64,000 nt of DNA from Candidatus Magasanikiibacteriota bacterium (GTDB taxonomy: Bacteria; Patescibacteriota; Patescibacteriia; Magasanikbacterales; UBA922): the NCBI GenBank assembly GCA_003518365.1, contig DOYU01000021.1, positions 492-64,491 of the forward strand, in the 5' to 3' direction. The notes beneath the pieces were generated by a model. That model ran no database searches, was not told the origin of the DNA, and saw only the letters and a program-made list of their open reading frames with translations. How positions within the stretch are numbered: the first letter of the stretch is position 1; each line of letters opens with the position of its first letter. Of the stretch, positions 5,777-56,809 are shown in pieces. A program made the translations under genes and the position numbers.

Positions 5777-6274
5777 CTAGTACAGGTAGCGCACCACCTC
5801 GAACGTCTCAATTGCGCCTGGTTGCGGCGCAATCGGGACGAACGCCGAGATGTGCACGCCACCTTCCAGCCCGTCGACTTGGAAGACGTAGTCTTCCGTG
5901 TCCATGGTGAGGAACGCCCCACCGTAGACACCACCGTCGCCGGTGACGCCGAAGACCTCGATCTCGAAGATCATTCCGGCGTAGACCTGTACGGGGATCT
6001 CGCCGACGAACTCGTACTCGAACAGCGCGATGTCCGGATCGATGGGATCCCAGACCTGTTGCGCAAAGCCTGCCTCGTCCACCACGGTCAGCCGACAGAC
6101 CGAGATGCACTCGACCCACGCCAAGGGCGGGGTGATGGTCTCATCGCTCGGCGTCGTCGTGTCCACCTGCTCGGGGCAGGCGGCCTGGACGGGCGCGAGG
6201 GTGTCGGAGTCGCAGGCGGCGGCGAGGGTCAGGGTCAGGGTCAGGGCGATGGTGGCGACGAAGAAGCTACGCAT
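5777..6274 (-). CDS. GC-rich predicted lipoprotein, paralog A (divergent)
   Basis: Start at ATG 6274 with GGAGG 6-7 nt upstream. Signal peptide plus lipobox: MRSFFVATIALTLTLTLAAAC. A sampled line is 62% GC. No recognisable family. Confidence 0.6.
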   Translation of the reverse strand: MRSFFVATIALTLTLTLAAACDSDTLAPVQAACPEQVDTTTPSDETITPPLAWVECISVCRLTVVDEAGFAQQVWDPIDPDIALFEYEFVGEIPVQVYAGMIFEIEVFGVTGDGGVYGGAFLTMDTEDYVFQVDGLEGGVHISAFVPIAPQPGAIETFEVVRYLY

Positions 6275-6423
6275 CGGAATCCTCCGGTGATGCGGTCTCA
6301 CGATGTACTTTACTACAGCATTTCTGCAGCAAGCACGATCGAATGAACCGCACCACCAACATGTTCTCTTGCATTGTAAAAAGCATGTCAAAAGAGGTAC
6401 TTGTGTCCTATTTTGAACGGCTG

Positions 6424-6452
6424 AATATAACATAAAAACACACTTTTGTCAA
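6424..6452 (-). promoter_or_regulatory. Candidate promoter for lipoprotein A (TTGACA-17-TATATT)
   Basis: On the reverse strand, TTGACA (6452-6447), a 17-nt spacer, then TATATT (6429-6424). Confidence 0.45.
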
Positions 6453-6461
6453 GTGTATAAC

Positions 6462-6553
6462 TAAAAAAATTGCCTTATGTTAGCAATTTTCTTCTTTTTT
6501 AGAAGTTTGCAAACAGTCGACGCAGCGCACTCCGAAGAGCGCGCCGCGTCGAC
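6462..6553 (-). terminator. Compound 3' element of lipoprotein B: GC hairpin with a CTC-TTCG-GAG apex, then an AT hairpin with a T-run
   Basis: GTCGACGC...GCGCGCTCTTCGGAGTGCGC...GCGTCGAC (6516-6553), followed on the reverse strand by AATTGC...GCAATT and TTTTTTT (6462-6489). The same architecture is repeated after lipoprotein C. Confidence 0.55.
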
Positions 6554-6565
6554 CGCGAAGAAAGA

Positions 6566-7099
6566 TCAGATGCCGTCTTGCCATCCGGGGTCGTAGACCA
6601 CTTGAATGGTGTACCTGCTCCCAGGTGTCCAGTCGTAGATGGGAAATCTCAGCTTTGGTGAGGTCTCGACACCATCATTGACTCGCAGGAGAAATTTGAA
6701 CATGAGGTTGTGGGACACGAGTTCGAGTGTCACACCGCCATTCATAGGGGGCGCGACCATCAGCTCGACCTCGATCTCTGCACCTTCAAGGAGCTGAAAA
6801 TCGAAGATCTCGTTACTCGCGAGATACTCATCGAGCGTAGGTCCCTCTTCATCACTCACATAGTACTCTCCATGAAAGAACCAAATGGGAGCGACCTCCC
6901 CATCCGGCAGGGTGACCGTCACCTTCCACACACCATTGGCCCAGAGAGAAGCGAAGGCTCCTTCTCCACCATAATGAAAGGTGATGCTTGGCTCAGAGGA
7001 ATCTTCCTCCTGCGGAATTTCCACATCTGGAAGGATGGTGGTGTCACAGCCGCCAGAGCTGTAGACGAAACCGAACAGAGCGAGAAAGATAAGTGCGTG
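6566..7099 (-). CDS. GC-rich predicted lipoprotein, paralog B
   Basis: Start at ATG 7099 (MHALIFLALFGFVYSSGGC, lipobox Cys) with GAGGT upstream. Clearly paralogous to 7377..7895: LDEYLASNEIFDFQLLEGAEIEVELMVAPPMNGG versus LDGYLAENEFLDFELTEGQTIHVELIESPPENGA. Confidence 0.65.
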   Translation of the reverse strand, partial: HALIFLALFGFVYSSGGCDTTILPDVEIPQEEDSSEPSITFHYGGEGAFASLWANGVWKVTVTLPDGEVAPIWFFHGEYYVSDEEGPTLDEYLASNEIFDFQLLEGAEIEVELMVAPPMNGGVTLELVSHNLMFKFLLRVNDGVETSPKLRFPIYDWTPGSRYTIQVVYDPGWQDGI

Positions 7100-7194
7100 C
7101 ATGAAATACCTCAGTGTGAATGCGACCATTCGTCAACGTACGGGACCACCCCGCACGTAAACGTATCAATCACATCCACATGACGTTGATCTTT

Positions 7195-7218
7195 CAAACG
7201 TATGATACCATACGTTTG
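7195..7218. promoter_or_regulatory. Perfect 10-4-10 palindrome CAAACGTATG-ATAC-CATACGTTTG at the predicted 5' end of the lipoprotein B transcript
   Basis: Read directly from the sequence. It lies about 10 nt downstream of the candidate -10 box, which is an operator-like or 5' stem-loop position. Confidence 0.4.
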
Positions 7219-7225
7219 ACAGTAA

Positions 7226-7253
7226 AAAATAGCAGAAAAAACAATTTTGTCAA
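7226..7253 (-). promoter_or_regulatory. Candidate promoter for lipoprotein B (TTGACA-16-TATTTT; weak -10)
   Basis: On the reverse strand, TTGACA (7253-7248). The surrounding about 50 nt (ttttgtcaagtgt..aaaaaattgcct.at.ttagcaatt) is conserved with 6440-6490. Confidence 0.3.
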
Positions 7254-7262
7254 GTGTCCAAA

Positions 7263-7363
7263 TAAAAAATTGCCTCATATTAGCAATTTCAAATATTTTT
7301 CAAAAGTGAAGCGAAGCGGCCGGCGCAGCGCTGCAACTCCGAAGAGTGCGCGCCACGCCGGTC
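7263..7363 (-). terminator. Compound 3' element of lipoprotein C (GC hairpin with CTC-TTCG-GAG apex, then AT hairpin with T-run)
   Basis: GGCCGGCG...CTCCGAAGAG...CGCCGGTC (7318-7363) and AATTGC..GCAATT plus a T-run (7263-7289). Same design as 6462-6553. Confidence 0.55.
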
Positions 7364-7376
7364 GCAAGGTGAGAGA

Positions 7377-7895
7377 TCAGGAGCAGGTGCCGTCCGGCAC
7401 GAGCTCCACGAAGTAGGCACGAGGTTCACCCACCGATGTGTAGATGGGCAGATAACACGTGGGCACTCCCCGGTTATTCGTGAACTGATACGCCTGTTGA
7501 TGGGAGACCAAGGTCATCTGCTCGGCACCATTCTCTGGTGGAGATTCGATGAGCTCGACATGGATGGTCTGTCCCTCTGTCAGCTCAAAATCCAGGAACT
7601 CATTCTCCGCCAGGTAGCCATCCAGCTTCCCGGCATCTTCATCAAGGACTTCGTACGGTCCAAGAGAGCGCCAAATCGAAGCAGCAGACCCGTCCGGATT
7701 AAGAACGCTGATCTCGCAGGCTCCTCGGCACCAAAAGGTTCCAAAGTTCTTCTCTCCGAGGTCATGCACTACAACTTTTGCGCCGTCTGCCTTCCCGACC
7801 TTTGGTGTGTCGGATATGCCCTCAATGTCCACATCGCAACCACCAATGAAGATGGCGACCAGCGCAAGAATCATGGTGATAATCGTGAGATGCAT
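7377..7895 (-). CDS. GC-rich predicted lipoprotein, paralog C
   Basis: Start at ATG 7895 with GGAGG 5 nt upstream. MHLTIITMILALVAIFIGGC gives a signal peptide and lipobox. Paralog of 6566..7099. Confidence 0.65.
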   Translation of the reverse strand: MHLTIITMILALVAIFIGGCDVDIEGISDTPKVGKADGAKVVVHDLGEKNFGTFWCRGACEISVLNPDGSAASIWRSLGPYEVLDEDAGKLDGYLAENEFLDFELTEGQTIHVELIESPPENGAEQMTLVSHQQAYQFTNNRGVPTCYLPIYTSVGEPRAYFVELVPDGTCS

Positions 7896-8007
7896 CGCGT
7901 CCTCCATAGAAGTATGAATACGACCATTCGTCAGCGTACGGGACCACCCCGAACACAAACGTATCTGCCGCATCCATACTTCTGTGATCTCTCAAAAATA
8001 TCATATC

Positions 8008-8070: not shown

Positions 8071-8201
8071 TATATTAAATATCTGGCTGTATTGCTTACG
8101 CATGTTTCATTGTCAAATTGTTACATTGTTATATTGTTGATGATATTAAATAGATTGATATATGATAATTGTTATTTGCTATCTGAAATGTTAGCACTCT
8201 C

Positions 8202-8284: not shown

Positions 8285-8875
8285 ATGTTTATGCATTCTC
8301 AATACCTCATCCCAACCGTCATCGAAAAAACATCACACGGTGAACGTGCATACGATATTTACTCTCGCCTTTTGAAAGATCGCATTATTTTTCTTGGCAG
8401 CGCGATCGATGACGGCGTCGCAAATACCATCATCGCTCAGCTCCTCTTCCTGGCAAATCAAGACGCGGAAAAAGATATCAAACTCTATATCAACTCCCCT
8501 GGTGGATCCGTCACCGCAGGTATGGCCATCTACGACACCATGCAATTTGTAAAACCACATGTTTCGACGATTTGTATCGGCATGGCAGCAAGTATGGGAT
8601 CAGTCCTCCTCGCAGCAGGAGAAAAAGGAAAACGTTTTGTCCTCCCAAATAGTGAAGTGATGATTCATCAAGTCCTCGGTGGGACACAAGGGCAAGCAAG
8701 TGATATTCAGATTCATGCAGAACGCATTGTCAAAATGAAAAAACATCTGAATGAAATTCTTGCAAAACACTGTGGCCAAACATTTGAAAAAGTAGAAAAA
8801 GACGCAGACCGAGATTACTTCATGAGTGCGGAAGAAGCTGTGACATACGGACTTGTGGACAAAGTTATATCGTAG
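8285..8875 (+). CDS. clpP: ATP-dependent Clp protease proteolytic subunit
   Basis: Full-length ClpP signature: [19 protein letters not shown], catalytic Ser context GMAASMG, and MIHQ.LGG. Confidence 0.95.
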
Positions 8876-9175
8876 TTCACGAGTCACTTAACACGTAGCA
8901 CGAAACAATCTTACTCTGAACGGGAGGAAACCTTGCCAGGCAAGACTACGCTTCGCTAAGATTATGTTTCACCTACGGTGAAACAAGATTGAAGATTACT
9001 TCACAAAAAGAAGGACATGCATGATATGCATGTCCTTCTTAGCATGTAACATAATCTTCAATCTTTTTTGCCGTAAGGCAAAAGTAATCTTAGTGGAGCG
9101 AAGCGAAACGCAATCTTACGTTGCACTAGGACACACGTTGTCACATACTATGTGACTCGTGTCTCGTGAACTACG
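8871..9175. repeat. 305-bp imperfect palindrome filling the clpP/permease convergent intergenic region
   Basis: 13-nt terminal inverted repeats CGTAGTTCACGAG (8871-8883) and CTCGTGAACTACG (9163-9175), each containing the TAG stop codon of the adjacent gene. Mirrored internal blocks: CGCTTCGC-TAAGATTA, small hairpins with CCTACGG/CTTACGG loops, AAGATTGAAGATTA. Central 14-bp hairpin AGAAGGACATGCAT/ATGCATGTCCTTCT at 9010-9039. Confidence 0.7.
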
Positions 9176-10364
9176 TGAACAAAACAAACACACTATACAC
9201 TGCTCCAACAGTCAACACGAGCAAGAGCAATGCACCAAGGAGTGCGATATGATGCAATTTATATTTTCCAGGATCAAGATCACCCAATTTTTTTGCGCGC
9301 CAATAAATCAGAAGAATGAGCAACATCTCAATACTACCAAACACACCACCGACAATATTGATCGCGGCAACAAATTGTCGAAGACCTAATAAAAAAATGA
9401 TACAAGGAATACCAAGTGTCACCACCGTCGCAATGCGCCCACTCATATGATAATCCCATGACAGTGAATCTTTGAGCGATACACCATTGAGCAAAAAGCT
9501 GGTCGCCATGGCAAAGAATGCAAACGCATTGCCAAACAAAAACAACGTGTGGCCGAGCCTATTGCCAAGGCCTATCGTTGCAATTTCTGTTGTCCCCTGT
9601 CCTGTCACCCCTACAACGACGAGCGCAAATGTCAGATACAGCGCCATGACGAGCAACCCTCCTATGAGGATCGCGCGACGAAATGCTCCGTTATCATCTT
9701 TCAAAAGGGCATGTATCTCAGGCACTGCTGTCGTACCATGGAGAGAAAATAAGACCACACCATAGGGAAGAAAGAGATAGGCAAGATTTGTGGTATAGAG
9801 ATGGGTGATGTCAATATGTGGCACACTCAGTGACGTGATAAACAACACAATCACCAAAATGCCAATGGTGAGAATCAGTTCAGCGGTCTTCACAGTGCGA
9901 AGCCCGAGCATCACAAGGAGTGCTGCGAATACAAAGAACACCAGACTCCACTCTACGCTACTGCCCCCAAAGAGCGCAGCAAGCGTTTCCCCTTCTCCAA
10001 TCAGATAAATCACGAGCGCGCCAAACAGCATGCCATACATCATGACGGTCATGATCATCCCGCCTGCCTTTCCTAAATATTTTTTTGCAAACCCAACGAG
10101 CTGAAACGACCCATGTGTTCTCACTGCGACTTCGCCAAGCATGAGATTCAGTCCGATCATAAGCGCGCCTAAGCCAATAATATAGAGCACCCCAATCAAC
10201 ACACCCGCTTGTGCTACAGCATAGGGCAATCCGAGCACTCCAGCACCGATCGTCCCACTGATCATGAGTGCAACGCCTTCAGCCATAGAAAGTTTGCGTC
10301 GAAAAATTCCTTGATGCATGGCAAGGTCTGTGATTTCTAGTTGTGGGCGTTTTCGAAAGAACAT
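9171..10364 (-). CDS. Amino acid permease (Trp/Tyr-type or Aa_trans-like, about 11 TM helices)
   Basis: Polytopic membrane protein with LSMAEGVALMISGTIGAGVLGLPYAVAQAG near the N-terminus. The start is ambiguous: ATG 10364 or ATG 10319. Confidence 0.7.
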   Translation of the reverse strand: MFFRKRPQLEITDLAMHQGIFRRKLSMAEGVALMISGTIGAGVLGLPYAVAQAGVLIGVLYIIGLGALMIGLNLMLGEVAVRTHGSFQLVGFAKKYLGKAGGMIMTVMMYGMLFGALVIYLIGEGETLAALFGGSSVEWSLVFFVFAALLVMLGLRTVKTAELILTIGILVIVLFITSLSVPHIDITHLYTTNLAYLFLPYGVVLFSLHGTTAVPEIHALLKDDNGAFRRAILIGGLLVMALYLTFALVVVGVTGQGTTEIATIGLGNRLGHTLFLFGNAFAFFAMATSFLLNGVSLKDSLSWDYHMSGRIATVVTLGIPCIIFLLGLRQFVAAINIVGGVFGSIEMLLILLIYWRAKKLGDLDPGKYKLHHIALLGALLLLVLTVGAVYSVFVLFT

Positions 10365-11732: not shown

Positions 11733-14399
11733 TTATGACAACGTATCTACCAATGAGTCTGCCAATCCAATATATTTTTCTGGTGTCAGTGTAAAAAGAA
11801 ATTGTTTGTCTTCTTCAGAAATATCAAGTGTTGCGACAAAATTCCTAATTGTTAGGCTATCAAGTCGTGTTCCCCTACTCAATTCTTTTAATCGTTCATA
11901 CGCATCCTGCTGTCCATACTTTCGCAACATGGTTTGGATTGCTTCGGTAACGATTTCCGGATGTGCCTGCAATTCTTGCACAAGCGCAGACTGATTTGGG
12001 GTAATCGTAGCCATTCCTTTTATCATACTTTTTACTGCCAAGAATGCATGCGCAAGTGCTACGCCTTGATTGCGTATCATTGTGCTTCCGCTAAGATCTC
12101 TTTGCATACGTGAGACTGGCAGATGCGTCGCCAATGTTGTAAACAATCCGTTGGCAAGAGCAATATTGCCTTCAGCATGTTCAAAGTGAATCGGATTTAC
12201 TTTATGCGGCATGGTACTTGATCCAACATGTTCTTTCTCTACCATTTGTCCAAACATTCCTCGACTAATATAGAGCCACATGTCTCGCGCCAGATCGAGA
12301 AGGATGGTATTTATACGAGAAACAATCTGATAACTTTCTGCAAGTGAATCATATGTATTGACTTGCGTCGTGAGCAGTAATTGTTCAAAGCCAAGGCTTG
12401 CAAGAAATGATTTGTGAAATCGAGGCCAGTCCACGTGCGCATCGAGTATCTGGTGTGCAGCAAACGTTCCTGTTGCCCCACTGCACTTTGCATCAAATGT
12501 CATGTTTGTAAGATTCGCACGCTGCTTTTTCAGTCTCTCTACAAAGACGGCAATTTCTTTCCCGACCGTAGTGGGTGTTGCCGCTTGTCCATGCGTGAGG
12601 GCAAGCATGGGGAGTCTCGCATGTGTCTTTGCAAATGTGGTTAGTGTGCTCATCAATCTATCAAGCGTTGGAACAAAGACCGTGCTCAGTGAATCACGCC
12701 AGAGTGACAGATATGCAATGTTATTGATATCTTCTGATGTCAGTGCGATATGAATAAAGGGAATTGCATGTGAAAGACCAAGCAATGGCAATCGTTCTTG
12801 CAAAAATATTTCAACGGCTTTTACATCATGATGAATCCTTTTTTCAATCTGTTTTACACGCGCAGCATCTTCGAGAGAAAACAATGTTGAAATGTTTCTA
12901 AGCTGCTCTTTTTGTATGTCTGAAAACGAAACCAACGCCGTGAAGGTTGTTTCTTCTGCGAGTGCAATAAGATATGCAATTTCAATATGCACACGAGAGC
13001 GAATCAATGCGTATTCTGAATGATATGCTGCAAGTTCTTGGACTTGTTCATAATATCGTCCGTCGATTGGGGAAATAGCAGTCAATGCGTTGTCAGCACC
13101 TTCTGCAAGATGTGAAGACAACACAACGGTTTCTGAACGCTTTGGACCAAATGACACAATACCGATCGGACACCCGACTTCTTTTTCTATGAAAGAGAGA
13201 TATGTCTGCACTGCAGGGTCAAATCCTTGCATCGTTGTTGGCATCTCGCCTGTGTACACCTGTTGCCATCCAGAGAGCGTGGTGTACACGGGCTGCGCCT
13301 TTCGCATGTCAGACAAACTTGCCGGCATTTCGTGAACAAGTTTTCCATCAATATAATACGCCGTACATACCTTCAATTCATCAAATCCATTCAAGACATC
13401 GAGCTTTGTAATTGCAATTTCAGTGAGTGGATGTACGCGGGCACTTTGCCTTACTTGCACCAAATCAAGCCAACCAATGCGACGCGCTCTCCCTGTCGTT
13501 GTCCCATATTCTTGTCCAAGTTCGCGGATACGGTCCCCGACCGAATCAGTCAATTCTGTCACAAACGGACTTGTCCCGACACGACTAACGTATGCTTTTA
13601 CCACACCGACAATCCGCTTTGGCGCATTGATGCCAAGTCCACTTCCGACTTCTGCGTGCGCTGCGACATTGTTTGAACTTGTCGTATGTGGATACAATCC
13701 ATGATCAGGATCGAGTGACATTCCTTGTGCTCCTTCAAAAAGGATACGTTTCCCTGCTGTATACGCGTGTGCGAGTTCCACTTCGGTATCAGCAATATAT
13801 TGTTTGAGTTGTTGTCCGTATGCAAGATATTGATTCGTGATTTCTTCTTTTGAAGATTGGAAGGTGCCACGAAGAACATTGGTAATCATGCCCACGTTGA
13901 AATCATACGCTTTGTCCAATTTTTCTCGAAACAGCTCTGGCTCGAGCAAATCGCCCATACGAATTCCATGGCGATACATTTTATCTGCATAGACCGGGGC
14001 AATACCACGCTTGGTGCTTCCGGCAGCGAGCGCACCCTGATGCCCAGAGAGTGCTTCATCCATGGCAATGTGATACGGCATGATGACATGCGCGCGTTCG
14101 CTGATAGCAAGTTTCAGTGGTCTACCGTTTTTTGTGATTTCTGCGATTTCTCCGAGAAGCACGCTGGGATCAATGACAACGCCATTTCCTATCACAGAAT
14201 GGGTGTGTTCAGATACCACGCCACAGGGCAACAGATGCAATTTGTATGTTTGTTCTCCAACGACAATCGTATGCCCAGCATTATTTCCTCCGTGAAATCG
14301 AACAACATACTCTGCATCACTCGCAAGCACATCTGTGATTTTTCCTTTCCCCTCATCCCCCCATTGAGCACCCACGACAACGGTTGTTTGTGGTTTCAT
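11733..14399 (-). CDS. Fusion protein: adenylosuccinate synthetase (N-terminal half) and adenylosuccinate lyase (C-terminal half)
   Basis: One uninterrupted 888-aa ORF. The N-terminal half carries PurA motifs (VVVGAQWGDEGKGKITD, GGNNAGHT, TTTGRARRIGWLD). After a roughly 12-aa linker (SSHLAEGADNA), PurB begins (LTAISPIDGRYYEQV...) and includes the fumarate-lyase signature GSSTMPHKVNP. Confidence 0.85.
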   Translation of the reverse strand: MKPQTTVVVGAQWGDEGKGKITDVLASDAEYVVRFHGGNNAGHTIVVGEQTYKLHLLPCGVVSEHTHSVIGNGVVIDPSVLLGEIAEITKNGRPLKLAISERAHVIMPYHIAMDEALSGHQGALAAGSTKRGIAPVYADKMYRHGIRMGDLLEPELFREKLDKAYDFNVGMITNVLRGTFQSSKEEITNQYLAYGQQLKQYIADTEVELAHAYTAGKRILFEGAQGMSLDPDHGLYPHTTSSNNVAAHAEVGSGLGINAPKRIVGVVKAYVSRVGTSPFVTELTDSVGDRIRELGQEYGTTTGRARRIGWLDLVQVRQSARVHPLTEIAITKLDVLNGFDELKVCTAYYIDGKLVHEMPASLSDMRKAQPVYTTLSGWQQVYTGEMPTTMQGFDPAVQTYLSFIEKEVGCPIGIVSFGPKRSETVVLSSHLAEGADNALTAISPIDGRYYEQVQELAAYHSEYALIRSRVHIEIAYLIALAEETTFTALVSFSDIQKEQLRNISTLFSLEDAARVKQIEKRIHHDVKAVEIFLQERLPLLGLSHAIPFIHIALTSEDINNIAYLSLWRDSLSTVFVPTLDRLMSTLTTFAKTHARLPMLALTHGQAATPTTVGKEIAVFVERLKKQRANLTNMTFDAKCSGATGTFAAHQILDAHVDWPRFHKSFLASLGFEQLLLTTQVNTYDSLAESYQIVSRINTILLDLARDMWLYISRGMFGQMVEKEHVGSSTMPHKVNPIHFEHAEGNIALANGLFTTLATHLPVSRMQRDLSGSTMIRNQGVALAHAFLAVKSMIKGMATITPNQSALVQELQAHPEIVTEAIQTMLRKYGQQDAYERLKELSRGTRLDSLTIRNFVATLDISEEDKQFLFTLTPEKYIGLADSLVDTLS

Positions 14400-17505: not shown

Positions 17506-17609
17506 AGATTTAGAATGTTGAATGTCCCGCAAAGCGGGATAGAATGTAGGATCTTGAATGCAGAATATGGAATGTTGAATGCAACATTCTACATTCTATA
17601 TTCCACATT

Positions 17610-18524
17610 CTACAATACAAAAAGTGCTGAGCCCAGTATAACAAATATCATCGCCACTGTCTGTACGGCAATCTCTCGACGAGAAAATGTTTCTTTCAAA
17701 ACACGTGGCGCAAATTTGGTGAGGAGCACGATGAAGAGGGTCATCAAGGCATACTGCACACCAACAAGTGCATTCACGAGCGTCACACTACCAACTGCGA
17801 TCGCGAGCTGGATGAGGACCACACCGACCACGCCGAGGACTTTGTTACTCACAATAATCAGTATGCCTCTGACGCCGCGAAACGCAGCGTTTTCTCCTTC
17901 TGCTTTTTTCACTCGATGAAACGTATTGCGAACAGCAGGAGAAAAAAGACAAACAATCCCAACCAACCCGGTCGTGGCGCGCGTCCACACAAATCCGGTG
18001 AGAAATGGATAGAGTTCATACAAATATTTTGCTGTCACGTGTGAGATAGCAAAGAGAAGAGCCGCAAGGATTCCCCACGCAAAACTGCTGTTGAATTCTA
18101 CAAGCCCTTTCTCATTAAAAAATGCGAGTAACAATGTTGCTCCTGCAAGCACTGCCATGCCGGCGATCTCAATCGTGCGAAGTGTTTCCCCGAGAAAAAC
18201 AAACGCGAGCACAAAAATAACAATGGTAATCATCGCGCCAATAAATGGGTTGATATGGCTTGCTTCTCCCTTTTTTACGGACAAAAACATTGCCCACAAA
18301 CCAAATCCAAATCCAAGCCCAGAGACAAGTGCCCAGAGCCAATCAATCCCATGTAAAAGCCCTACTCCAAACGGAAACGCAAGCAGCGCGCCAAACATGA
18401 AGATGGTAGAATAAAACGTATACACAATAGGATTGCTAAGTGTTTTTGTGAGGATCAATTTGTCGAGCACAAACACAATCGCAAGTGCAACGTATCCGGC
18501 AAGAGCAAGAAGTAACCAAAGCAT
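17610..18524 (-). CDS. EamA/DMT-family transporter (10 TM helices)
   Basis: Two-fold repeated 5-TM architecture, 304 aa, hydrophobic throughout. Confidence 0.6.
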   Translation of the reverse strand: MLWLLLALAGYVALAIVFVLDKLILTKTLSNPIVYTFYSTIFMFGALLAFPFGVGLLHGIDWLWALVSGLGFGFGLWAMFLSVKKGEASHINPFIGAMITIVIFVLAFVFLGETLRTIEIAGMAVLAGATLLLAFFNEKGLVEFNSSFAWGILAALLFAISHVTAKYLYELYPFLTGFVWTRATTGLVGIVCLFSPAVRNTFHRVKKAEGENAAFRGVRGILIIVSNKVLGVVGVVLIQLAIAVGSVTLVNALVGVQYALMTLFIVLLTKFAPRVLKETFSRREIAVQTVAMIFVILGSALFVL

Positions 18525-19430: not shown

Positions 19431-19488
19431 ATTTGAAATTAGAAATTAGAAATTTGTCCCGCAGAGACGGGATCCCGCTTTGCGGGAC

Positions 19489-20954: not shown

Positions 20955-20983
20955 GGGCTTGTCCTGCCTTTCGCGAAAGGCGG
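20955..20983 (+). repeat. Left copy of the direct repeat flanking the GIY-YIG gene (contains hairpin CCTGCCTTTCGCGAAAGGCGG)
   Basis: GGGCTTGTCCTGCCTTTCGCGAAAGGCGG. The near-identical copy at 21322-21351 differs by a G/T substitution at the first base and one extra C. It is followed by a second hairpin, TCCCTCCCTTC-acg-GAAGGGAGGGA (20989-21014). Confidence 0.7.
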
Positions 20984-21047
20984 AGCGCGTCCCTCCCTTC
21001 ACGAAGGGAGGGATATATCGTATAGTGTGTATCAAACAGGAGGGGCT

Positions 21048-21296
21048 ATGTTCTATACCTACCTATTGCAAAGTACAAAGGACAACAATTTTTATATTGG
21101 ATCAACGACGGATTTAAAAAGAAGATTCACCGAACATAACGATGGGAAAGTTTCTTCAACAAAATTTCGTCGTCCAATGAAATTGGTATATTACGAAGCC
21201 TATCCAGAAGAACATCTGGCACGAGTACGCGAACAAAAATTAAAAGATTTTGGTTCAGCATACACAGCACTATTAAAAAGATTAGGGTATAAATAA
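21048..21296 (+). CDS. Small GIY-YIG nuclease family protein (UPF0213/YhbQ-like)
   Basis: MFYTYLLQSTKDNNFYIGSTTDLKRRFTEHN carries the GIY..YIG and R..H motifs. ATG 21048 is preceded by AGGAGGGG. Confidence 0.85.
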   Translation: MFYTYLLQSTKDNNFYIGSTTDLKRRFTEHNDGKVSSTKFRRPMKLVYYEAYPEEHLARVREQKLKDFGSAYTALLKRLGYK

Positions 21297-21321
21297 TATA
21301 GATATATAGTACGTTGTATAG

Positions 21322-21351
21322 TGGCTTGTCCCTGCCTTTCGCGAAAGGCGG
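21322..21351 (+). repeat. Right copy of the direct repeat flanking the GIY-YIG gene
   Basis: TGGCTTGTCCCTGCCTTTCGCGAAAGGCGG. Confidence 0.7.
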
Positions 21352-21411
21352 GATAAATACTGTGGTCTTCAAAAGAAGATGAGGCAAACAAAAAAATGCA
21401 TATACATACAT

Positions 21412-52173: not shown

Positions 52174-53046
52174 TTATTTCTTCTCCTGCGGAGATTTTGG
52201 GAGTTGTATGTCTGACATCGGCGGTTGCTGCGGCATCTTTTTCATACCGTAGAAAAGAGCGCCAAACATGAACCCAAGGAGAATGATCGAGTATACATAC
52301 GGCACAGGAAAGACCATCAAAAGCATGATGAGCTGCACAATCGTAGGAACGGTCAGTGCATACACACCGATGGTGAACACCTGCCAATAGGTAATAGGCT
52401 TTTTGTCTGCGCGCGCGACCACGTAGACCAGCCATGACATAATACCCAGAAAAAACAATTTCCACATGCCCAGAAAACCGGTAATCACAAGCGCAATAGC
52501 AAGCAAAATCCACGGCATGGCACCCTGAAAAAATGTTGTTAATTTGTCACTCACCTGCTGTCTTGTCACAGAAAAGGAAGGAACATTTTTGATATATTCT
52601 GTTTGGACATTCTTCAAATCCTGATCATAGACTTTGATCAGTTTACTCGTGAGCACGAGCGTTGGTATCTCATCGACAACATCGCCACGCGCGTCTTCGA
52701 TACTCACAGAACTCGTTGTCACGGTATCAACATAGAGGAGCATGGCATCACCTTCTGTACTTTCAAAAATCTGACGATATGGCTGTTCCAATCCTGAAAT
52801 GGATAAGGTGCCATCCTGCACTGATACAGCAACATCTGGTGCATTCTCAGTCACTTCATTCCAATACACCAATGCTTGTGATGGCAAATCTCGGACGAAC
52901 AGATAGCCACCAATCACCACGACAAGAAAAAAGAATATGAAAAAATACGCAAGCGCGCTGCCAAGTTTTTCTCGGTTTGATGCCAGCCAGGTGACATCAT
53001 AACAACTTTTGTAGAAGGCTGTTGCAATATGTTTGAGAAATTTCAT
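52174..53046 (-). CDS. Polytopic membrane protein (DUF1189-like); tentative
   Basis: N-terminus MKFLKHIATAFYKSCYDV followed by a TM segment, an extracytoplasmic loop and four C-terminal TM helices. Family assignment is by pattern only. Confidence 0.45.
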   Translation of the reverse strand: MKFLKHIATAFYKSCYDVTWLASNREKLGSALAYFFIFFFLVVVIGGYLFVRDLPSQALVYWNEVTENAPDVAVSVQDGTLSISGLEQPYRQIFESTEGDAMLLYVDTVTTSSVSIEDARGDVVDEIPTLVLTSKLIKVYDQDLKNVQTEYIKNVPSFSVTRQQVSDKLTTFFQGAMPWILLAIALVITGFLGMWKLFFLGIMSWLVYVVARADKKPITYWQVFTIGVYALTVPTIVQLIMLLMVFPVPYVYSIILLGFMFGALFYGMKKMPQQPPMSDIQLPKSPQEKK

Positions 53047-53130
53047 AATAAATCCTGATATGCGGATAATCCAGATCAACAGATACGTATCCGTGGATCT
53101 GGATTATCTGGATATCCGTATGCTGCTACA

Positions 53131-53322: not shown

Positions 53323-53449
53323 ATGATTAATTACAGAATGATGTTAGTAGTGCAAAGACTATACAGGATTGCGGGAGATTTGTCAATACACACATAAAGG
53401 GAAGAGCCTCCATTGATTTTTGGCTCTATTATGCTATCCTCTGTCATAT

Positions 53450-54700
53450 ATGAGAGTAGCCATCGTAGGTGGAGGCGCCGCTGGCATGATGTGCGCCGCA
53501 ACTATCGCAGAGGAATATCCACATGTGGAAATCTTTGTGCTCGAAAAAAACGCCTCTCTTGGCAAAAAAGTCATTATTTCCGGTGGTGGGAGATGTAATG
53601 TTACGACCGGTATAGAAGACATTGCATTGGTACTCGAAAAATATCCTCGCGGCAATAAATTTCTCCAATCTGCCATGCATCGATTTTCTCCGAGCATGGT
53701 CTATGCTTGGTTTGAAGCACATGGCGTTCCACTCAAATGTGAAGACGATTTGCGAGTGTTTCCCGTATCAAATAATGGGAAAGATATTGTGGCGGTGTTT
53801 GAAGATATATTTGAAGAAGCAGACGTTCACGTCAAATATAAACACAATGTACAAGATATAACAAAAAAAGAAACAGGATTTGTTCTTTCTTTCAAAGATC
53901 AAAATGATCTCGAGGTAGACAAGGTCGTCATGGCACTCGGTGGACAAGCGTATCGTCACACCGGATCTACTGGCGACGGATATTATATCCTCGAACAATT
54001 GGGACACACAATCACTCCCCTTGCACCAAGTCTCAATTCTTTTTTGACAAAAGAATCCTGGCCAAAAGAACTTTCTGGCCTTTCATTTCAAAAAGCAACC
54101 ATTTTTGTACACGGACAAAAAAAACAATATAACAGTACCGGCCCATTTCTCTTTACCCATACTGGTGTCAGCGGCCCGGCAGTGTTTGCACTGTCTTCTC
54201 GAATTGCATTTCTTGACTATGACAAAACGAATCCACTCGCAATACAGATAGATGTCTTTCCAGACCAGACAGAACAAGAACTTCTTGAAAGACTTCAACA
54301 AACGAGAGAAGAACACATGCAAAAAACATTCAAAAATACGTTACCCCACTTGGTAGCGAAGTCACTTGCAGAAGAAATGTGTATCCAACTCGATATTCCC
54401 CTCGATAAAAAAAATGCCGACATGAGTAAAAAAGAATTGGCACGTATCGCAACATATGTAAAAGGAATACCACTCGAAGTAATTGGACGCGGTGCAGGAG
54501 ATGAATTTGTGACTGCCGGTGGCGTCGAACTCACAGAGGTCGACCCAAAAACAATGGAATCAAAAATATGTCCTGGACTGTACTTTGCAGGAGAAATTCT
54601 TGACGTCGACGGCTATACAGGCGGATTCAACTTACAAGCGTCTTGGGCAACTGGGAATGCTGCGGGTATAGCGATTGGAAGTAATGTGCCATTAGCCTAA
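53450..54700 (+). CDS. HI0933/BaiN-like NAD(P)/FAD-dependent oxidoreductase
   Basis: VAIVGGGAAGMMCA, ISGGGRCN, and the C-terminal GLYFAGEILDVDGYTGGFNLQ. Confidence 0.85.
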   Translation: MRVAIVGGGAAGMMCAATIAEEYPHVEIFVLEKNASLGKKVIISGGGRCNVTTGIEDIALVLEKYPRGNKFLQSAMHRFSPSMVYAWFEAHGVPLKCEDDLRVFPVSNNGKDIVAVFEDIFEEADVHVKYKHNVQDITKKETGFVLSFKDQNDLEVDKVVMALGGQAYRHTGSTGDGYYILEQLGHTITPLAPSLNSFLTKESWPKELSGLSFQKATIFVHGQKKQYNSTGPFLFTHTGVSGPAVFALSSRIAFLDYDKTNPLAIQIDVFPDQTEQELLERLQQTREEHMQKTFKNTLPHLVAKSLAEEMCIQLDIPLDKKNADMSKKELARIATYVKGIPLEVIGRGAGDEFVTAGGVELTEVDPKTMESKICPGLYFAGEILDVDGYTGGFNLQASWATGNAAGIAIGSNVPLA

Positions 54701-54955: not shown

Positions 54956-56086
54956 TTATTTCTTATAATACTTCTTTCCCTGCAACTTCTCCGGCAAAAA
55001 ACTTTTCTTTGATCTCATCTCATACCCTTCACCATATCCAAGTTCTTTCATCAAGGCTGTCGGGGCATTCCGGACTTCCATAGGAATAGACAAATTTCCA
55101 TGTGCCTTCACATCTGCCTCTGCCGCGCGGAGGGCATCGTAGGCAGATCGATCTTTTTTACTTTCTGCGAGATAGACGACGCCGTGAGCCAAATTGATCG
55201 CGCATTCCGGCAATCCTATTGTCTCTACTGATCGAAATACTTCATTTGCCACGACGAGCGCGGTTGGCTGCGCCATGCCGATGTCTTCACTCGCAAAGAC
55301 GACCATCCTTCGCGCAATAAACTTTGGGTCTTCACCAGCATCAAGCATCCGTGCGAGATAGTACACCGCCGCATCCGGCTGGCTCGCGCGCATAGATTTG
55401 ATAAAGGCGCTAATCGTGTTGTAATGTTCCTCCCCTTTTTTATCGTAGCGCAGATGTTTTGATTGCAGCGCTTCTTTCAAATGCTCGACAGTAATGGTGG
55501 TATATAATTCTTTTGTCTGCTCTAGCATGGTCAGTGCTTGGCGTGCGTCACCGTTTGCCATAGCAATGAGCCATTCCATAGCATCGTCTGGAATATACAT
55601 CTTTGTGGCTGTCAAAATAACGCGCATATCATCTGGCGTATGTTCGTGCAAGACAAACACCCGACATCGTGATAAGAGCGCGGAGATGACTTCAAAGCTG
55701 GGATTTTCTGTGGTCGCGCCGATCAACACGATTTCTCCAGATTCCACAAACGGGAGCAGATAATCTTGTTGCGCTTTATTGAAGCGATGAATTTCGTCGA
55801 GAAACAATATTTTTTGCGAATCACTTTCTGTCTTGATCACTTTTTCTACATCAGCCTTTTTTGCAGAGACAGCAGAGAGTTCAAAAAAATTTGCACCGAG
55901 ACTTTCTGCATATATTTTTGCCAATGTTGTCTTGCCACTTCCCGGAGGCCCCCAAAGAAGAAATGAAAACATATGCCCCTGCTCGATCGCTTTGCGAAGT
56001 GGCTTTCCGGGTCCCACAAGATGTTCTTGACCAATAAAGTCGTCAAGTGCCCGCGGACGGAGTTGTGTGGCGAGTGGGGTTTTCAT
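54956..56086 (-). CDS. rarA: Replication-associated recombination protein A (AAA+ ATPase)
   Basis: LWGPPGSGKTTLA, ILFLDEIHRFNK, GATTENPSF, and the MgsA C-terminal domain. Confidence 0.9.
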   Translation of the reverse strand: MKTPLATQLRPRALDDFIGQEHLVGPGKPLRKAIEQGHMFSFLLWGPPGSGKTTLAKIYAESLGANFFELSAVSAKKADVEKVIKTESDSQKILFLDEIHRFNKAQQDYLLPFVESGEIVLIGATTENPSFEVISALLSRCRVFVLHEHTPDDMRVILTATKMYIPDDAMEWLIAMANGDARQALTMLEQTKELYTTITVEHLKEALQSKHLRYDKKGEEHYNTISAFIKSMRASQPDAAVYYLARMLDAGEDPKFIARRMVVFASEDIGMAQPTALVVANEVFRSVETIGLPECAINLAHGVVYLAESKKDRSAYDALRAAEADVKAHGNLSIPMEVRNAPTALMKELGYGEGYEMRSKKSFLPEKLQGKKYYKK

Positions 56087-56727: not shown

Positions 56728-56736
56728 AGAACATAA

Positions 56737-56809
56737 GCAATAAACACTAAACAATAAACAGTCGTTACTCAAAATTGTTTATTGCCTGCTGTTTATTGTT
56801 TATTTTTTT
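56737..56809 (+). terminator. Extended hairpin plus T-run between tRNA-Val and tRNA-Thr
   Basis: GCAATAAACA and AAACAATAAACAG pair with TTGTTTATTGC and CTGTTTATTGTTT, followed by TTTTTTT. Confidence 0.45.

Follow-up and report, generated by a model that had tools for sequence, protein, structure and literature searches.

A dispersed mirror-symmetric repeat nested in locus-specific heptad arms between clpP and a permease gene of a Magasanikbacteria genome

In the 64,000-nucleotide stretch analyzed here (the window; contig DOYU01000021.1 of a Candidatus Magasanikiibacteriota genome), clpP on the plus strand and a gene for a Trp/Tyr-type amino-acid permease on the minus strand converge on a spacer of 295 nt. 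An initial annotation of this DNA had described a 305-nt imperfect palindrome at 8871-9175, and we found both its coordinates and its sequence to be as given there. Inverted-repeat pairs tile the spacer, from the outside inward at 8871-8908 / 9138-9175 (38 nt, 74% complementary), 8934-8957 / 9102-9125 (24 nt, 75%), 8946-8983 / 9066-9103 (38 nt, 74%), 8981-9005 / 9045-9069 (25 nt, 84%) and, at the centre, 9008-9022 / 9026-9040 (15 nt, 100%). The 13-nt termini, said to include the stop codons of both genes, match CGTAGTTCACGAG exactly at either end and contain the two TAG codons; this sequence occurs only twice in the window, even when two mismatches are allowed. Because a 3-nt inverted repeat is automatic for any convergent gene pair ending in TAG, only the other 10 bases of each terminus are non-trivial. 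The computed fold energy of the 305 nt is -131.7 kcal/mol on the plus strand and -139.6 on the minus strand, as against -66.5 +/- 4.6 and -72.7 +/- 4.9 for dinucleotide shuffles (z = -14.3 and -13.7); none of the 100 shuffles reached this stability.

A ClpP protein identical in every residue to that of 8285-8875 is encoded on 21 contigs, including those of GCA_000998635.1, GCA_001000125.1 and several groundwater metagenomes, and the whole clpP-permease spacer is 100% identical in the eight of these contigs that were compared. Among named homologues, those closest to the permease all carry a Magasanikbacteria annotation. Six AATCTTA/TAAGATT motifs had been reported in the palindrome, a count that holds roughly and depends on the definition used: the exact motif is present four times in the element, and the looser AAGAYT nine times within 8907-9117 (orientations - + + + + - - - -), the sole such cluster in the 64 kb. 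A motif of the DNA-uptake-sequence type is unlikely in this genome, as TAAGATT is not over-represented outside the element (13 exact copies in the whole window, 12.2 expected by chance). An Rfam scan of the whole window gave gathering-level matches to three tRNAs only, and a permissive scan of 8600-9450 gave just sub-threshold look-alikes of miRNA hairpins.

We found that the palindrome is a composite, in which an inner copy of a dispersed repeat, about 190 bp long, is nested in outer arms specific to this locus. Similarity between the window copy and non-orthologous copies amounts to 85% over 187 nt for locus L185, 86% for L126, 81% for L142 and 78% for L157, all of them beside unrelated genes, and the matches of 85-86% cover 160-187 nt. 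Since this similarity breaks off at a left boundary of about 8934-8942 and a right one of about 9100-9125, we place the element at about 8934-9125 (Table 1). Its ends are TGCCAGGCAAGACTACGCTTCGCT and AGCGAAACGCAATCTTACGTTGCA, and it contains no open reading frame (ORF); it is thus short and non-coding with terminal inverted repeats, as a miniature inverted-repeat transposable element (MITE) would be. The 13-nt termini are not the ends of this element, contrary to the initial annotation: repeat similarity stops further in, and the outer arms are shared only with orthologous loci. These findings bear on the simplest alternative, a long bidirectional terminator that grew in place and has no relatives elsewhere. 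The single copy in the window, the terminator-like central hairpin and the locus-specific outer arms fit such an origin, but the 78-86% identical copies at non-orthologous sites contradict it for the inner element; it stands for the outer heptad arms only, and as an account of the whole we regard it as very improbable.

To define the family, a metagenome collection was scanned with the pattern TAAGATTA-N15-23-AAGAYTRAAGAYTA, which returned 113 loci, about half of them AAGATTA microsatellites or AT-rich coding sequence. In 42 matches on 38 loci the segment between the motifs forms a hairpin with 5 bp or more (measured stems have 6-8 bp), and only 4 of these 38 loci are clpP-permease junctions. 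A profile was built from 37 arms, and a covariance model (R1) was derived from that profile. With both, arms were found only as a plus arm followed by a minus arm, 141-219 nt end to end, in about 25 distinct elements. The two arms of the window copy are recognized with nhmmer E-values of 2.4e-17 (left) and 8.4e-19 (right) and R1 scores of 73.0 and 80.6 bits, the latter being the highest of all matches. The initial annotation had suggested a search for further copies, and the inner blocks do recur at 20 or more other intergenic sites, none of them within the window, which also holds no additional copy of CGTAGTTCACGAG or of the inner motif AAGATTGAAGATTA; the latter is present solely as a mirrored pair.

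Besides the clpP-permease junction, the elements occupy at least 20 genomic contexts between housekeeping genes, on metagenome contigs of which at least some are Magasanikbacteria. Four contigs (L120, L133, L154 and L186) carry two elements each, 0.6-3 kb apart, and the density, leaving aside the copies by which the contigs were found, is an estimated one per 30-60 kb. Core genes flank the elements: an ABC-2 permease/transporter, a sorbosone-dehydrogenase-like protein, two tandem iPGM paralogs, uvrD, a C39-like peptidase, ldh, an M23/LysM peptidase, ybaB and recR, holA, ksgA, rplS, ftsK and an extracytoplasmic function (ECF) sigma factor. Elements lie between convergent genes and, more often, between co-directional ones, and frequently start 0-50 nt past the upstream stop codon. 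The family is restricted to one lineage: with profile and model, 77 other Patescibacteria species (429 kb) and the relatives L211-L214 gave no arm. L142 belongs to a Magasanikbacteria metagenome-assembled genome (MAG) from Crystal Geyser, as shown by its UvrD, part of which is 100% identical to P0164. A phage origin was considered and rejected, as a scan of viral contigs gave just two spurious matches in coding sequence (identical to L096 and L116).

All arms share one layout. From the outside to the centre, an optional hairpin (often CCCCAC-TGCG-GTGGG; in the window CTTGCC-A-GGCAAG) is followed by AAGAYT, a linker, TAAGATTA, a mini-hairpin and AAGATTGAAGAYTA, about 65 nt in total. The linker is 9 or 19 nt long, G+C-rich and CGCTTCGC-like, and is itself a hairpin at times; the mini-hairpin is perfect, with 6-8 bp and a loop of 3-5 nt. 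As the initial annotation had noted, each arm of the window copy holds a small hairpin with a stem of its own, and we found that the two are not complementary to each other. The centres are 13-97 nt long and define sub-families. The window type, CTTCACAAAAAGAAGGACATGCAT...ATGCATGTCCTTCTTAGCATGTAACA, is also present at L142, L171, L157, L185, L126, L120a and L169; a second type is ATAATACATCTT-GAGA-AAGATGTATTAT, and a third AAAGAACATCGC...GCGATGTTCTTT. Orthologous copies can carry different centres (L112 versus L126; L142 versus L143), which indicates that the elements are mosaics. Just outside the window copy, GAAACAATCTTAC at 8902-8914 includes an AATCTT (at 8907) in the 'wrong' orientation; this segment is possibly a leftover of an earlier arrangement.

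Table 1. Features of the clpP-permease junction, in order of position in the window.
Feature	Position	Strand	Description
clpP	8285-8875	+	196 aa, ends ...TCG TAG, stop 8873-8875; Pfam CLP_protease (identical called gene)
Left 13-nt terminus CGTAGTTCACGAG	8871-8883	+	contains clpP stop; exact match
Left outer arm	8878-8905	+	four period-7 units, CACGAGT CACTTAA CACGTAG CACGAAA; locus-specific
GAAACAATCTTAC	8902-8914	+	direct-repeat look-alike of the element's right end GAAACGCAATCTTAC (9105-9119); by reading the sequence
Dispersed palindromic repeat copy	8934-9125		two arms and centre; similarity to non-orthologous copies over 8942-9125; terminal inverted repeat 8934-8957 / 9102-9125
Left arm	8935-9000	+	(CTTGCC-A-GGCAAG hairpin)-AAGACT-ACGCTTCGC-TAAGATTA-hairpin-AAGATTGAAGATTA
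Left-arm mini-hairpin	8965-8985		TGTTTCACC-TAC-GGTGAAACA; as GTTTCACC-TAC-GGTGAAAC at 8966-8984; stem covaries family-wide
Inner tandem motif AAGATTGAAGATTA, left	8985-8998	+	sequence search
Central hairpin	9008-9040		perfect 15 bp, 3-nt loop; AAAAA before it on +; - strand reads GGACATGCAT-ATC-ATGCATGTCC-UUCUUUUUGUG
Right arm	9050-9114	-	AAGATT-GCGTTTCGCTTCGCTCCAC-TAAGATTA-hairpin-AAGATTGAAGATTA, read on - strand
Inner tandem motif AAGATTGAAGATTA, right, mirrored	9052-9065	-	sequence search
Right-arm mini-hairpin	9066-9083		TTTTGCC-GTAA-GGCAAAA; identical hairpin on opposite arm in L013
Right outer arm	9148-9168	-	mirrored heptads CACGAGA CACGAGT CACATAG; locus-specific
Right 13-nt terminus CGTAGTTCACGAG	9163-9175	-	contains permease stop; exact match
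Trp/Tyr-type amino-acid permease	9171-10364	-	397 aa, ends ...ACG TAG, stop 9171-9173; Pfam Aa_trans/Trp_Tyr_perm

The mini-hairpins covary throughout the family. The 31 unique ones have 19 different stems, all perfectly paired, whereas halves taken from two different hairpins (5' from one, 3' from the other) form stems of 7 bp or more just 25% of the time. In a model-based alignment, double changes were found at seven of the eight pairs, the number of doubly changed cells being 58, as compared with 20 +/- 5 after column shuffling (0 of 500 reached 58), and slid registers scored far lower. These data indicate that the hairpins are selected or maintained as structures, and that the motifs between them are kept as sequence. 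Wobble pairs are absent: with relaxed flanks, 48 hairpins comprise 298 Watson-Crick pairs, no G-U, two C-A, one T-C and one G-G, and the symmetry of the stems therefore looks like a property of DNA. The lack of G-U pairs is at odds with an RNA transcribed from a single strand; it suggests either that both strands must fold (as DNA hairpins, as a cruciform or as transcripts of both strands) or that template switching corrects imperfect palindromes. Such correction of quasipalindromes is an established mutational process (PMC7202029).

These observations also bear on two RNA-level readings. The first, a single structured RNA of 305 nt, had been offered by the initial annotation and is unlikely on our results: the arm hairpins are not mutually complementary, the orthologous spacer L009 has no left module, no Rfam family matches and there are no G-U pairs. 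The second is that arm and centre together form a small RNA (sRNA) or an RNA derived from the 3' untranslated region (3'UTR), with a 5' hairpin, an unpaired AAGAUUGAAGAUUA acting as 'seed' or protein platform, and a terminator; the outcome would be a convergent RNA pair, or two equivalent 3'UTRs on which one RNA-binding protein or RNase acts by binding or cleavage. The order of hairpin, conserved unpaired motif and terminator is the classic sRNA layout, both mRNAs end in the same order of modules, the motifs are conserved in sequence while the stems covary, and the left arm holds a weak promoter-like TTGCCA-N18-TAAGAT. However, the absence of G-U among about 300 stem pairs in the sense orientation would be unusual for constraint on RNA alone; both arms are kept between co-directional genes, where only one would precede the terminator, with no significant asymmetry between them; some copies (L154a, L140) have no central hairpin; and there is no Rfam match. 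The promoter-like spacing holds for short-linker arms only, and a promoter in the arms was rejected on that ground. We consider this reading unlikely.

The comparison of the clpP 3' region in relatives, proposed in the initial annotation, shows that the element is present in some sister lineages and absent from others. The same permease/clpP arrangement is found only among the closest permease homologues (at least 60% identity). At 77 other Patescibacteria permease loci there is neither clpP synteny nor the element, and a link to the permease gene itself was rejected on this ground. Permease identity groups the orthologs as (window, (L009, L011)), (L013, L093) at 87% and (L094, L095) at 80%. 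L011 (spacer of 299 nt) has all parts of the window spacer. L009 (253 nt) has lost the left inner module and kept the right one, and carries a perfect 26-nt inverted repeat, TAGTACGAATCACGTAACACGTAACA, against both stops. L013 (271 nt) and L095 (332 nt) have AAGAYT/hairpin modules with a different central hairpin and are without heptad arms. L093 (123 nt) has heptad arms and a plain terminator without AAGAYT modules, L094 (89 nt) has a plain terminator hairpin only, and a further contig, P0008, has a spacer of 86 nt, a length taken from gene calls only. Members of a sister pair thus differ, L013 being filled and L093 empty, L095 filled and L094 empty. From these modular differences we conclude that the inner modules and the outer heptad arms are separable, and both come and go between sister lineages. 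The hairpin TTTTGCC-GTAA-GGCAAAA, on the permease side in the window, lies inverted on the clpP side in L013, which indicates that arms exchange material.

A second junction, from a C39-peptidase gene to uvrD, holds the element in L142 and in L143, whose UvrD is 78% identical. Its spacer in four other relatives is 21 nt (P0122, from gene calls), 80 nt (L211), 7 nt (L212) and 6 nt (L213); given these short, operon-like spacers, the compact junction is evidently older and the element arrived there later. Two copies, the one before ftsK (L140, L185) and the one between clpP and the permease gene, occur alike in diverged species and were thus inherited vertically. Our results suggest a lineage-restricted family of low to moderate copy number that occasionally reaches new intergenic sites and then persists.

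The initial annotation had likened the palindrome to a MITE-like foldback element. Dispersed copies and filled and empty sites agree with that comparison, whereas the marks of transposition were not found: when 11 copies were aligned with their flanks, the inverted ends GCAACGRAAGAYT...ARTCTTYCGTTGC were conserved, nothing outside them was, and no direct repeat or target-site duplication followed the ends. An ordinary MITE would be a deletion derivative of an insertion sequence (IS), moved by a DDE transposase acting on its terminal inverted repeats and leaving a target-site duplication. The short, non-coding, intergenic copies, their conserved inverted ends, the filled or empty sites of relatives and the presence of several copies on some contigs all fit this description. 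Against it, no aligned boundary shows a target-site duplication; no transposase gene was seen in a partial survey of about 40 copy-bearing contigs; copies differ by whole modules and compensated stems, not by random decay; and orthologous copies persist across permeases of about 60% identity, whereas MITEs usually stay recognizable for much less time than such divergence implies. An ordinary MITE is therefore, in our assessment, improbable.

Outside the inner element, both stop codons are approached by short inverted arrays of heptads. Inverted repeats of the heptad CACGTAR directly follow both stops in the orthologs L009, L011 and L093, and none were present in the non-orthologous copies of the inner element. 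The C-terminus of ClpP (...VIS) is conserved in all seven lineages, with or without a palindrome, so the stop codon did not come with an inserted element. The two arms of any one genome have derived states in common (TTCACGAG(T/A)CAC in the window; L009 with its perfect 26-mer), which indicates that they evolve in concert. Such concerted evolution could come about in a quasipalindrome whose arms undergo template switching or gene conversion with each other, or by selection for pairing. We infer homogenization as the mechanism: the quasipalindrome would have been homogenized outward until coding sequence was reached, so that the palindrome would stop where coding constraint begins. Selection for pairing of the termini, in a read-through RNA or a cruciform, is the alternative.

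Heptad arrays are found elsewhere in the window as well. Tandem Repeats Finder (TRF) reports six period-7 arrays, all intergenic and with differing units, among them 1068-1097, 17540-17614, 19431-19454 and 56733-56808; units include TGTTAAT, TAGAATG/ACATTCT, ATTAGAA and ATAAACA/ATTGTTT. Two of the sites, 17540-17614 and 56733-56808, are pairs of inverted arrays that form hairpins, the latter between the genes for tRNA-Val and tRNA-Thr. We read the outer arms as one more case of this genome's habit of inverted heptad arrays. A period-8 array (TGTTACAT x4.5) lies upstream of clpP at 8103-8138. The hairpin TCCCGC-AAA/TTT-GCGGGA occurs at 17525-17539 and at 19473-19487 (0.06 occurrences expected by chance), both times adjoining a heptad array in a co-directional spacer, and a related GTCCCGCAGAGACGGGA lies at about 19457. 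In another Patescibacterium, whose permease is 53% identical, about 19 heptads of the form xTGxTAx (L031:2340-2480, including GTTACGT and GATACGT, units that resemble CACGTAR) lie directly upstream of the -10 box TGCTATAAT of the homologous permease gene.

The recurrence of period 7 raises the possibility that AAGATTR and CACGTAR heptads are operators for a small protein, for example an omega-type ribbon-helix-helix protein, which recognizes 7-bp repeats, and that the array serves as a roadblock, a nucleoid site or a regulatory site. Both repeats do have period 7 and are mirrored (AAGATTG AAGATTA in one case, the CACGAGT to CACGAAA series in the other), similar heptads precede the TGCTATAAT box in L031, and strict Watson-Crick symmetry of the stems fits a constraint at the DNA level. 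Yet most AAGAYT copies are not contiguous heptads, having hairpins of 16-21 nt between them; the other heptad arrays of the window all differ in sequence and are thus not explained by one common binder; the element has no candidate regulator linked to it; and the 3' ends of genes are an unusual place for operators. We hold such a protein-binding array to be quite improbable.

The centre of the window copy bears on transcription. Its hairpin has a free energy of -22.8 kcal/mol, with an A run upstream and, on the minus strand, UUCUUUUUG downstream. From these features the centre is probably an intrinsic terminator, canonical and strong for the permease transcript, given its UUCUUUUUGUG tail, and weaker for that of clpP. 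In the relatives without the element (L093, L094) a plain terminator hairpin occupies the same spacer. Clean, strong centres with A and T runs were found at all three independent convergent junctions (window/L011/L013, L157 and L138), whereas centres are weak or absent at most co-directional junctions (L126, L120a, L140, L185, L154a, L169, L103 and L133a). Although the numbers are small, this trend is the one expected if the centre is kept where termination is needed and decays where read-through is needed. Termination does not account for the arms: they are retained past a separate terminator (L162, L143) and in a copy without a centre (L154a), and hence need another explanation. Candidates are recognition by a spreading agent, the binding of a protein to DNA or RNA, and RNase processing between AAG and AUU beside a hairpin, a setting that presumably resembles the preferences of RNase Y/E. 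The initial annotation was thus right that the structure is more elaborate than a bidirectional terminator, in that arms and further copies go beyond a plain one. At the clpP-permease junction the most likely function, judged from sequence features, would be bidirectional termination together with protection of the 3' ends.

Taken together, our data make it probable, though by no means certain, that the palindrome represents a new family of intergenic palindromic repeats in one Magasanikbacteria sub-lineage, serving here as a bidirectional terminator and nested in locus-specific heptads. On this interpretation, about 8934-9125 is one copy of a non-coding, mirror-symmetric family confined to that sub-lineage. 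Its arms are built by iterating a single-stranded-looking (T)AAGAYT(A) and a perfect 6-8 bp mini-hairpin, ending in AAGATTGAAGAYTA and facing each other across a variable centre. It would behave in the manner of REPINs, bacterial interspersed mosaic elements (BIMEs) or MITEs, reaching new intergenic sites and then undergoing vertical inheritance, exchange of modules or loss. In the window sub-family the strong central hairpin with its A and T runs would act as a shared bidirectional intrinsic terminator and 3'-end structure of both mRNAs, and the outermost 35 nt or so on each side, the 13-nt termini included, are locus-specific inverted CACGTAR arrays that fill the space up to both stops. The anatomy, the family with its mirror symmetry, the covarying hairpins, the patchy filling of orthologous sites and the confinement to a single lineage are shown by the data themselves.

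Several observations weigh against this interpretation. With respect to mobility, which we infer to be the cause of the family's spread, the one line of evidence is the patchy occupancy of sites, and repeated loss together with recombination between copies could mimic part of that pattern. No target-site duplication follows the ends of the 11 aligned copies, the flanks of filled and empty sites being too diverged for base-exact comparison, the 20 flanking proteins scanned include no transposase, and neither an autonomous partner nor a gene for a REP-associated tyrosine transposase (RAYT) was seen on the copy-bearing contigs examined. Profile and model find one copy in the 64-kb window, and the copy-bearing contigs with a taxonomic assignment are L142 and the clpP-permease orthologs only, most others having none. 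With respect to termination, the plus-strand tail after the central hairpin is UUCUUAGC, a poor U tract, and a simple consensus scan for terminators did not flag the centre. Strong centres are also present in some co-directional copies (L112, L143, L162), and at L162 and L143 the upstream gene has a canonical terminator of its own before the element. Finally, at co-directional junctions the conservation of upstream and downstream arms compares as 8 against 5, a non-significant asymmetry that offers no handle on a function at the RNA level.

A more speculative reading is that the family is a hitherto unrecognized class of mobile foldback DNA specific to the candidate phyla radiation (CPR), whose arms, as single-stranded DNA, would form a branched junction with conserved AAGAYT duplexes and side hairpins of free sequence that are read by a structure-specific HUH/Y1-like or other enzyme, or else that arrays of AAGAUU plus hairpin are a genome-wide platform for an RNA-binding or RNA-processing protein. 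Either way, portable bidirectional terminators would be spreading through very compact episymbiont genomes. We regard this as rather unlikely.

The window and the relatives contain further features apart from the repeat family. At 20959-21356, an ORF for an 82-aa GIY-YIG protein (21048-21296; Pfam E = 9.5e-17) lies inside a 23-nt inverted repeat (91% complementary) with the hairpin GCCTTTCGCGAAAGGC, at a divergent strand switch beside tRNA-Trp, and looks like a small mobile cassette. The segment 54763-54907, in the 255-nt spacer of the convergent genes 53420-54700 (+) and 54956-56086 (-), is conserved at the DNA level with L162:10993-11140, on a contig that carries the repeat element (tblastx identity of about 71-81% in several frames and on both strands); it has no Rfam match (best E = 0.31) and may be an unannotated RNA gene. 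A 70-bp palindrome without spacer (53052-53121; 35-nt arms, 83% complementary) overlaps the 5' end of ORF 52174-53079 (-) and reaches into the divergent spacer before 53420-54700 (+). The 888-aa ORF at 11733-14399 is a PurA-PurB fusion, with domains of adenylosuccinate synthetase and adenylosuccinate lyase; L011 keeps it, and L009 has a HAD-lyase architecture instead. Upstream of clpP, at 5777-7973, are three ORFs (218, 187 and 198 aa) without Pfam match, and G+C at 6001-8000 is 0.525, compared with about 0.44. As relatives carry different genes at the corresponding place, including HigB/ParE-like toxins, this segment is variable. Downstream of uvrD and ndk in L213 (13399-15613), a bAvd / 23S_rRNA_IVP-type gene is followed by 1.3 kb without a called gene, and may be a diversity-generating retroelement.

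Repetitive extragenic palindromes (REPs), REPINs, BIMEs, Correia elements and BOX are well studied in a few cultivated phyla, and CPR genomes are about 1 Mb in size and tightly packed. A family that persists across deep divergence inside operon-like junctions is informative on the ways in which compact genomes put up with selfish DNA or exploit it, on the punctuation of transcription units in organisms without genetics, and on the origin of the unannotated 200-300-nt 'gaps' in CPR MAGs. The arm model can serve as a marker of one Magasanikbacteria sub-lineage and yields a list of candidate terminators. Should a RAYT or IS partner truly be absent, the means by which the family spreads would become a well-defined question. 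In kind it is not surprising, and a specialist would, as we read it, file it as another repeat family unless a new enzyme or RNA-binding factor appears. We found no description of dispersed intergenic palindromic repeats in CPR/Patescibacteria in the literature.

Comparison with known systems removes several candidates. A replication terminus or dif site is not indicated, as there is no switch of GC skew at 9 kb, and the look-alike of a XerD arm, TTATGTTACAT, has no XerC half and is not conserved in L013. With respect to parS (the 16-bp palindrome TGTTNCACGTGAAACA recognized by ParB/Spo0J), the left hairpin TGTTTCAC-CTACG-GTGAAACA merely resembles split half-sites, and its stem is not conserved in other copies or orthologs. 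The alternation of conserved short motifs with variable segments, the likeness of the element ends (GTGCAAC / GTTGCAC), at 6 of 7 positions, to the R boxes of integron attC sites (RYYYAAC...GTTRRRY) and the alternation of genes with elements in L120 and L154 might recall an attC site or a guide-RNA array, either TIGR (tandem interspaced guide RNA) or a CRISPR-like tandem. The R-box likeness is confined to some copies and the left end of the window copy does not match; copies are single, scattered between core genes, convergent ones included, and not in arrays of co-oriented cassettes; and no integrase was seen. The variable segments are halves of self-complementary hairpins rather than spacers, and the genes next to the element are clpP, the permease and other core genes, with no adjacent Nop-domain (Tas), Cas or IntI gene. 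TIGR arrays, which are common in CPR bacteria, consist of unidirectional units of about 36 nt with edge and loop repeats and two spacers and lie beside the Nop-domain gene tas (PMC12045711). The units here are about 27 nt long and mirrored, and we attach practically no probability to a guide-RNA array or an attC site.

The closest resemblance is to REPINs, inverted REP doublets that are mobilized by RAYT transposases (Bertels & Rainey 2011, PMC3116915; PMC3337134). Like them, the elements described here are non-coding and extragenic, consist of two inverted halves and a spacer, and can fold back as a whole, the paired plus and minus arms of 141-219 nt being two inverted units that form a larger hairpin. 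Each half combines short hairpins with a conserved short motif, tens of copies or more lie between housekeeping genes, and inheritance is mostly vertical over long times with occasional new sites, as in the population behaviour described for REPINs (PMC3116915, PMC3337134). The differences are substantial. An arm here is about 65 nt long and comprises 2-4 units of motif and hairpin, not one REP; the motif is (T)AAGAYT(A), and the hairpins are flanked by TAAGATTA and AAGAYT, not by GTAG, the conserved 5' tetranucleotide of REPs; the stems are highly variable from copy to copy; a terminator is often present in the centre; the estimated density is far below that of classical REPs; and no RAYT gene was seen among the contigs examined.

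BIMEs are enterobacterial mosaics of alternating palindromic units, tied to attenuation of transcription and stabilization of mRNA 3' ends; binding of IHF, gyrase or Pol I is a further BIME trait. The family described here shares with them the alternation of palindromic units with conserved linker motifs and the position after stop codons of convergent or co-directional genes, and differs in having unrelated sequences and strictly one mirrored pair. Correia elements of Neisseria (CREE, Correia repeat enclosed elements), ERIC, RUP and BOX are bacterial MITEs with long inverted ends, and Correia elements duplicate TA. They too are intergenic and palindromic, measure 100-300 bp, occupy sites that are filled or empty, can deliver terminators, promoters or RNase sites to neighbouring genes and, in the case of BOX with its repeated boxB, are modular. 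Here, by contrast, no target-site duplication or related IS was found, and stems are kept by compensatory change rather than by sequence.

An ordinary bidirectional terminator also offers a perfect, G+C-containing central stem, bordered by A and T runs on opposite sides, between convergent stops; it differs in that here some 250 more structured bases surround the stem, and that the flanks recur at unrelated loci, including operon-like co-directional pairs. For the outer arms alone, the nearest parallels are the short tandemly repeated repetitive (STRR) sequences, heptanucleotide tandem repeats of heterocystous cyanobacteria, and the heptad operators WATCACW of the omega protein of pSM19035. 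These likewise are intergenic 7-bp units in direct and inverted orientation (compare AATCACG / AATCACA in L009 and L011), whereas the arms here have only 3-4 units each, of sequence CACGTAR, and the other heptad arrays of the window are unrelated in sequence. Membership in any of the named repeat families either fails or lacks support; in kind, we read the family as closest to REPINs, BIMEs and the long-ended MITEs such as Correia and BOX.

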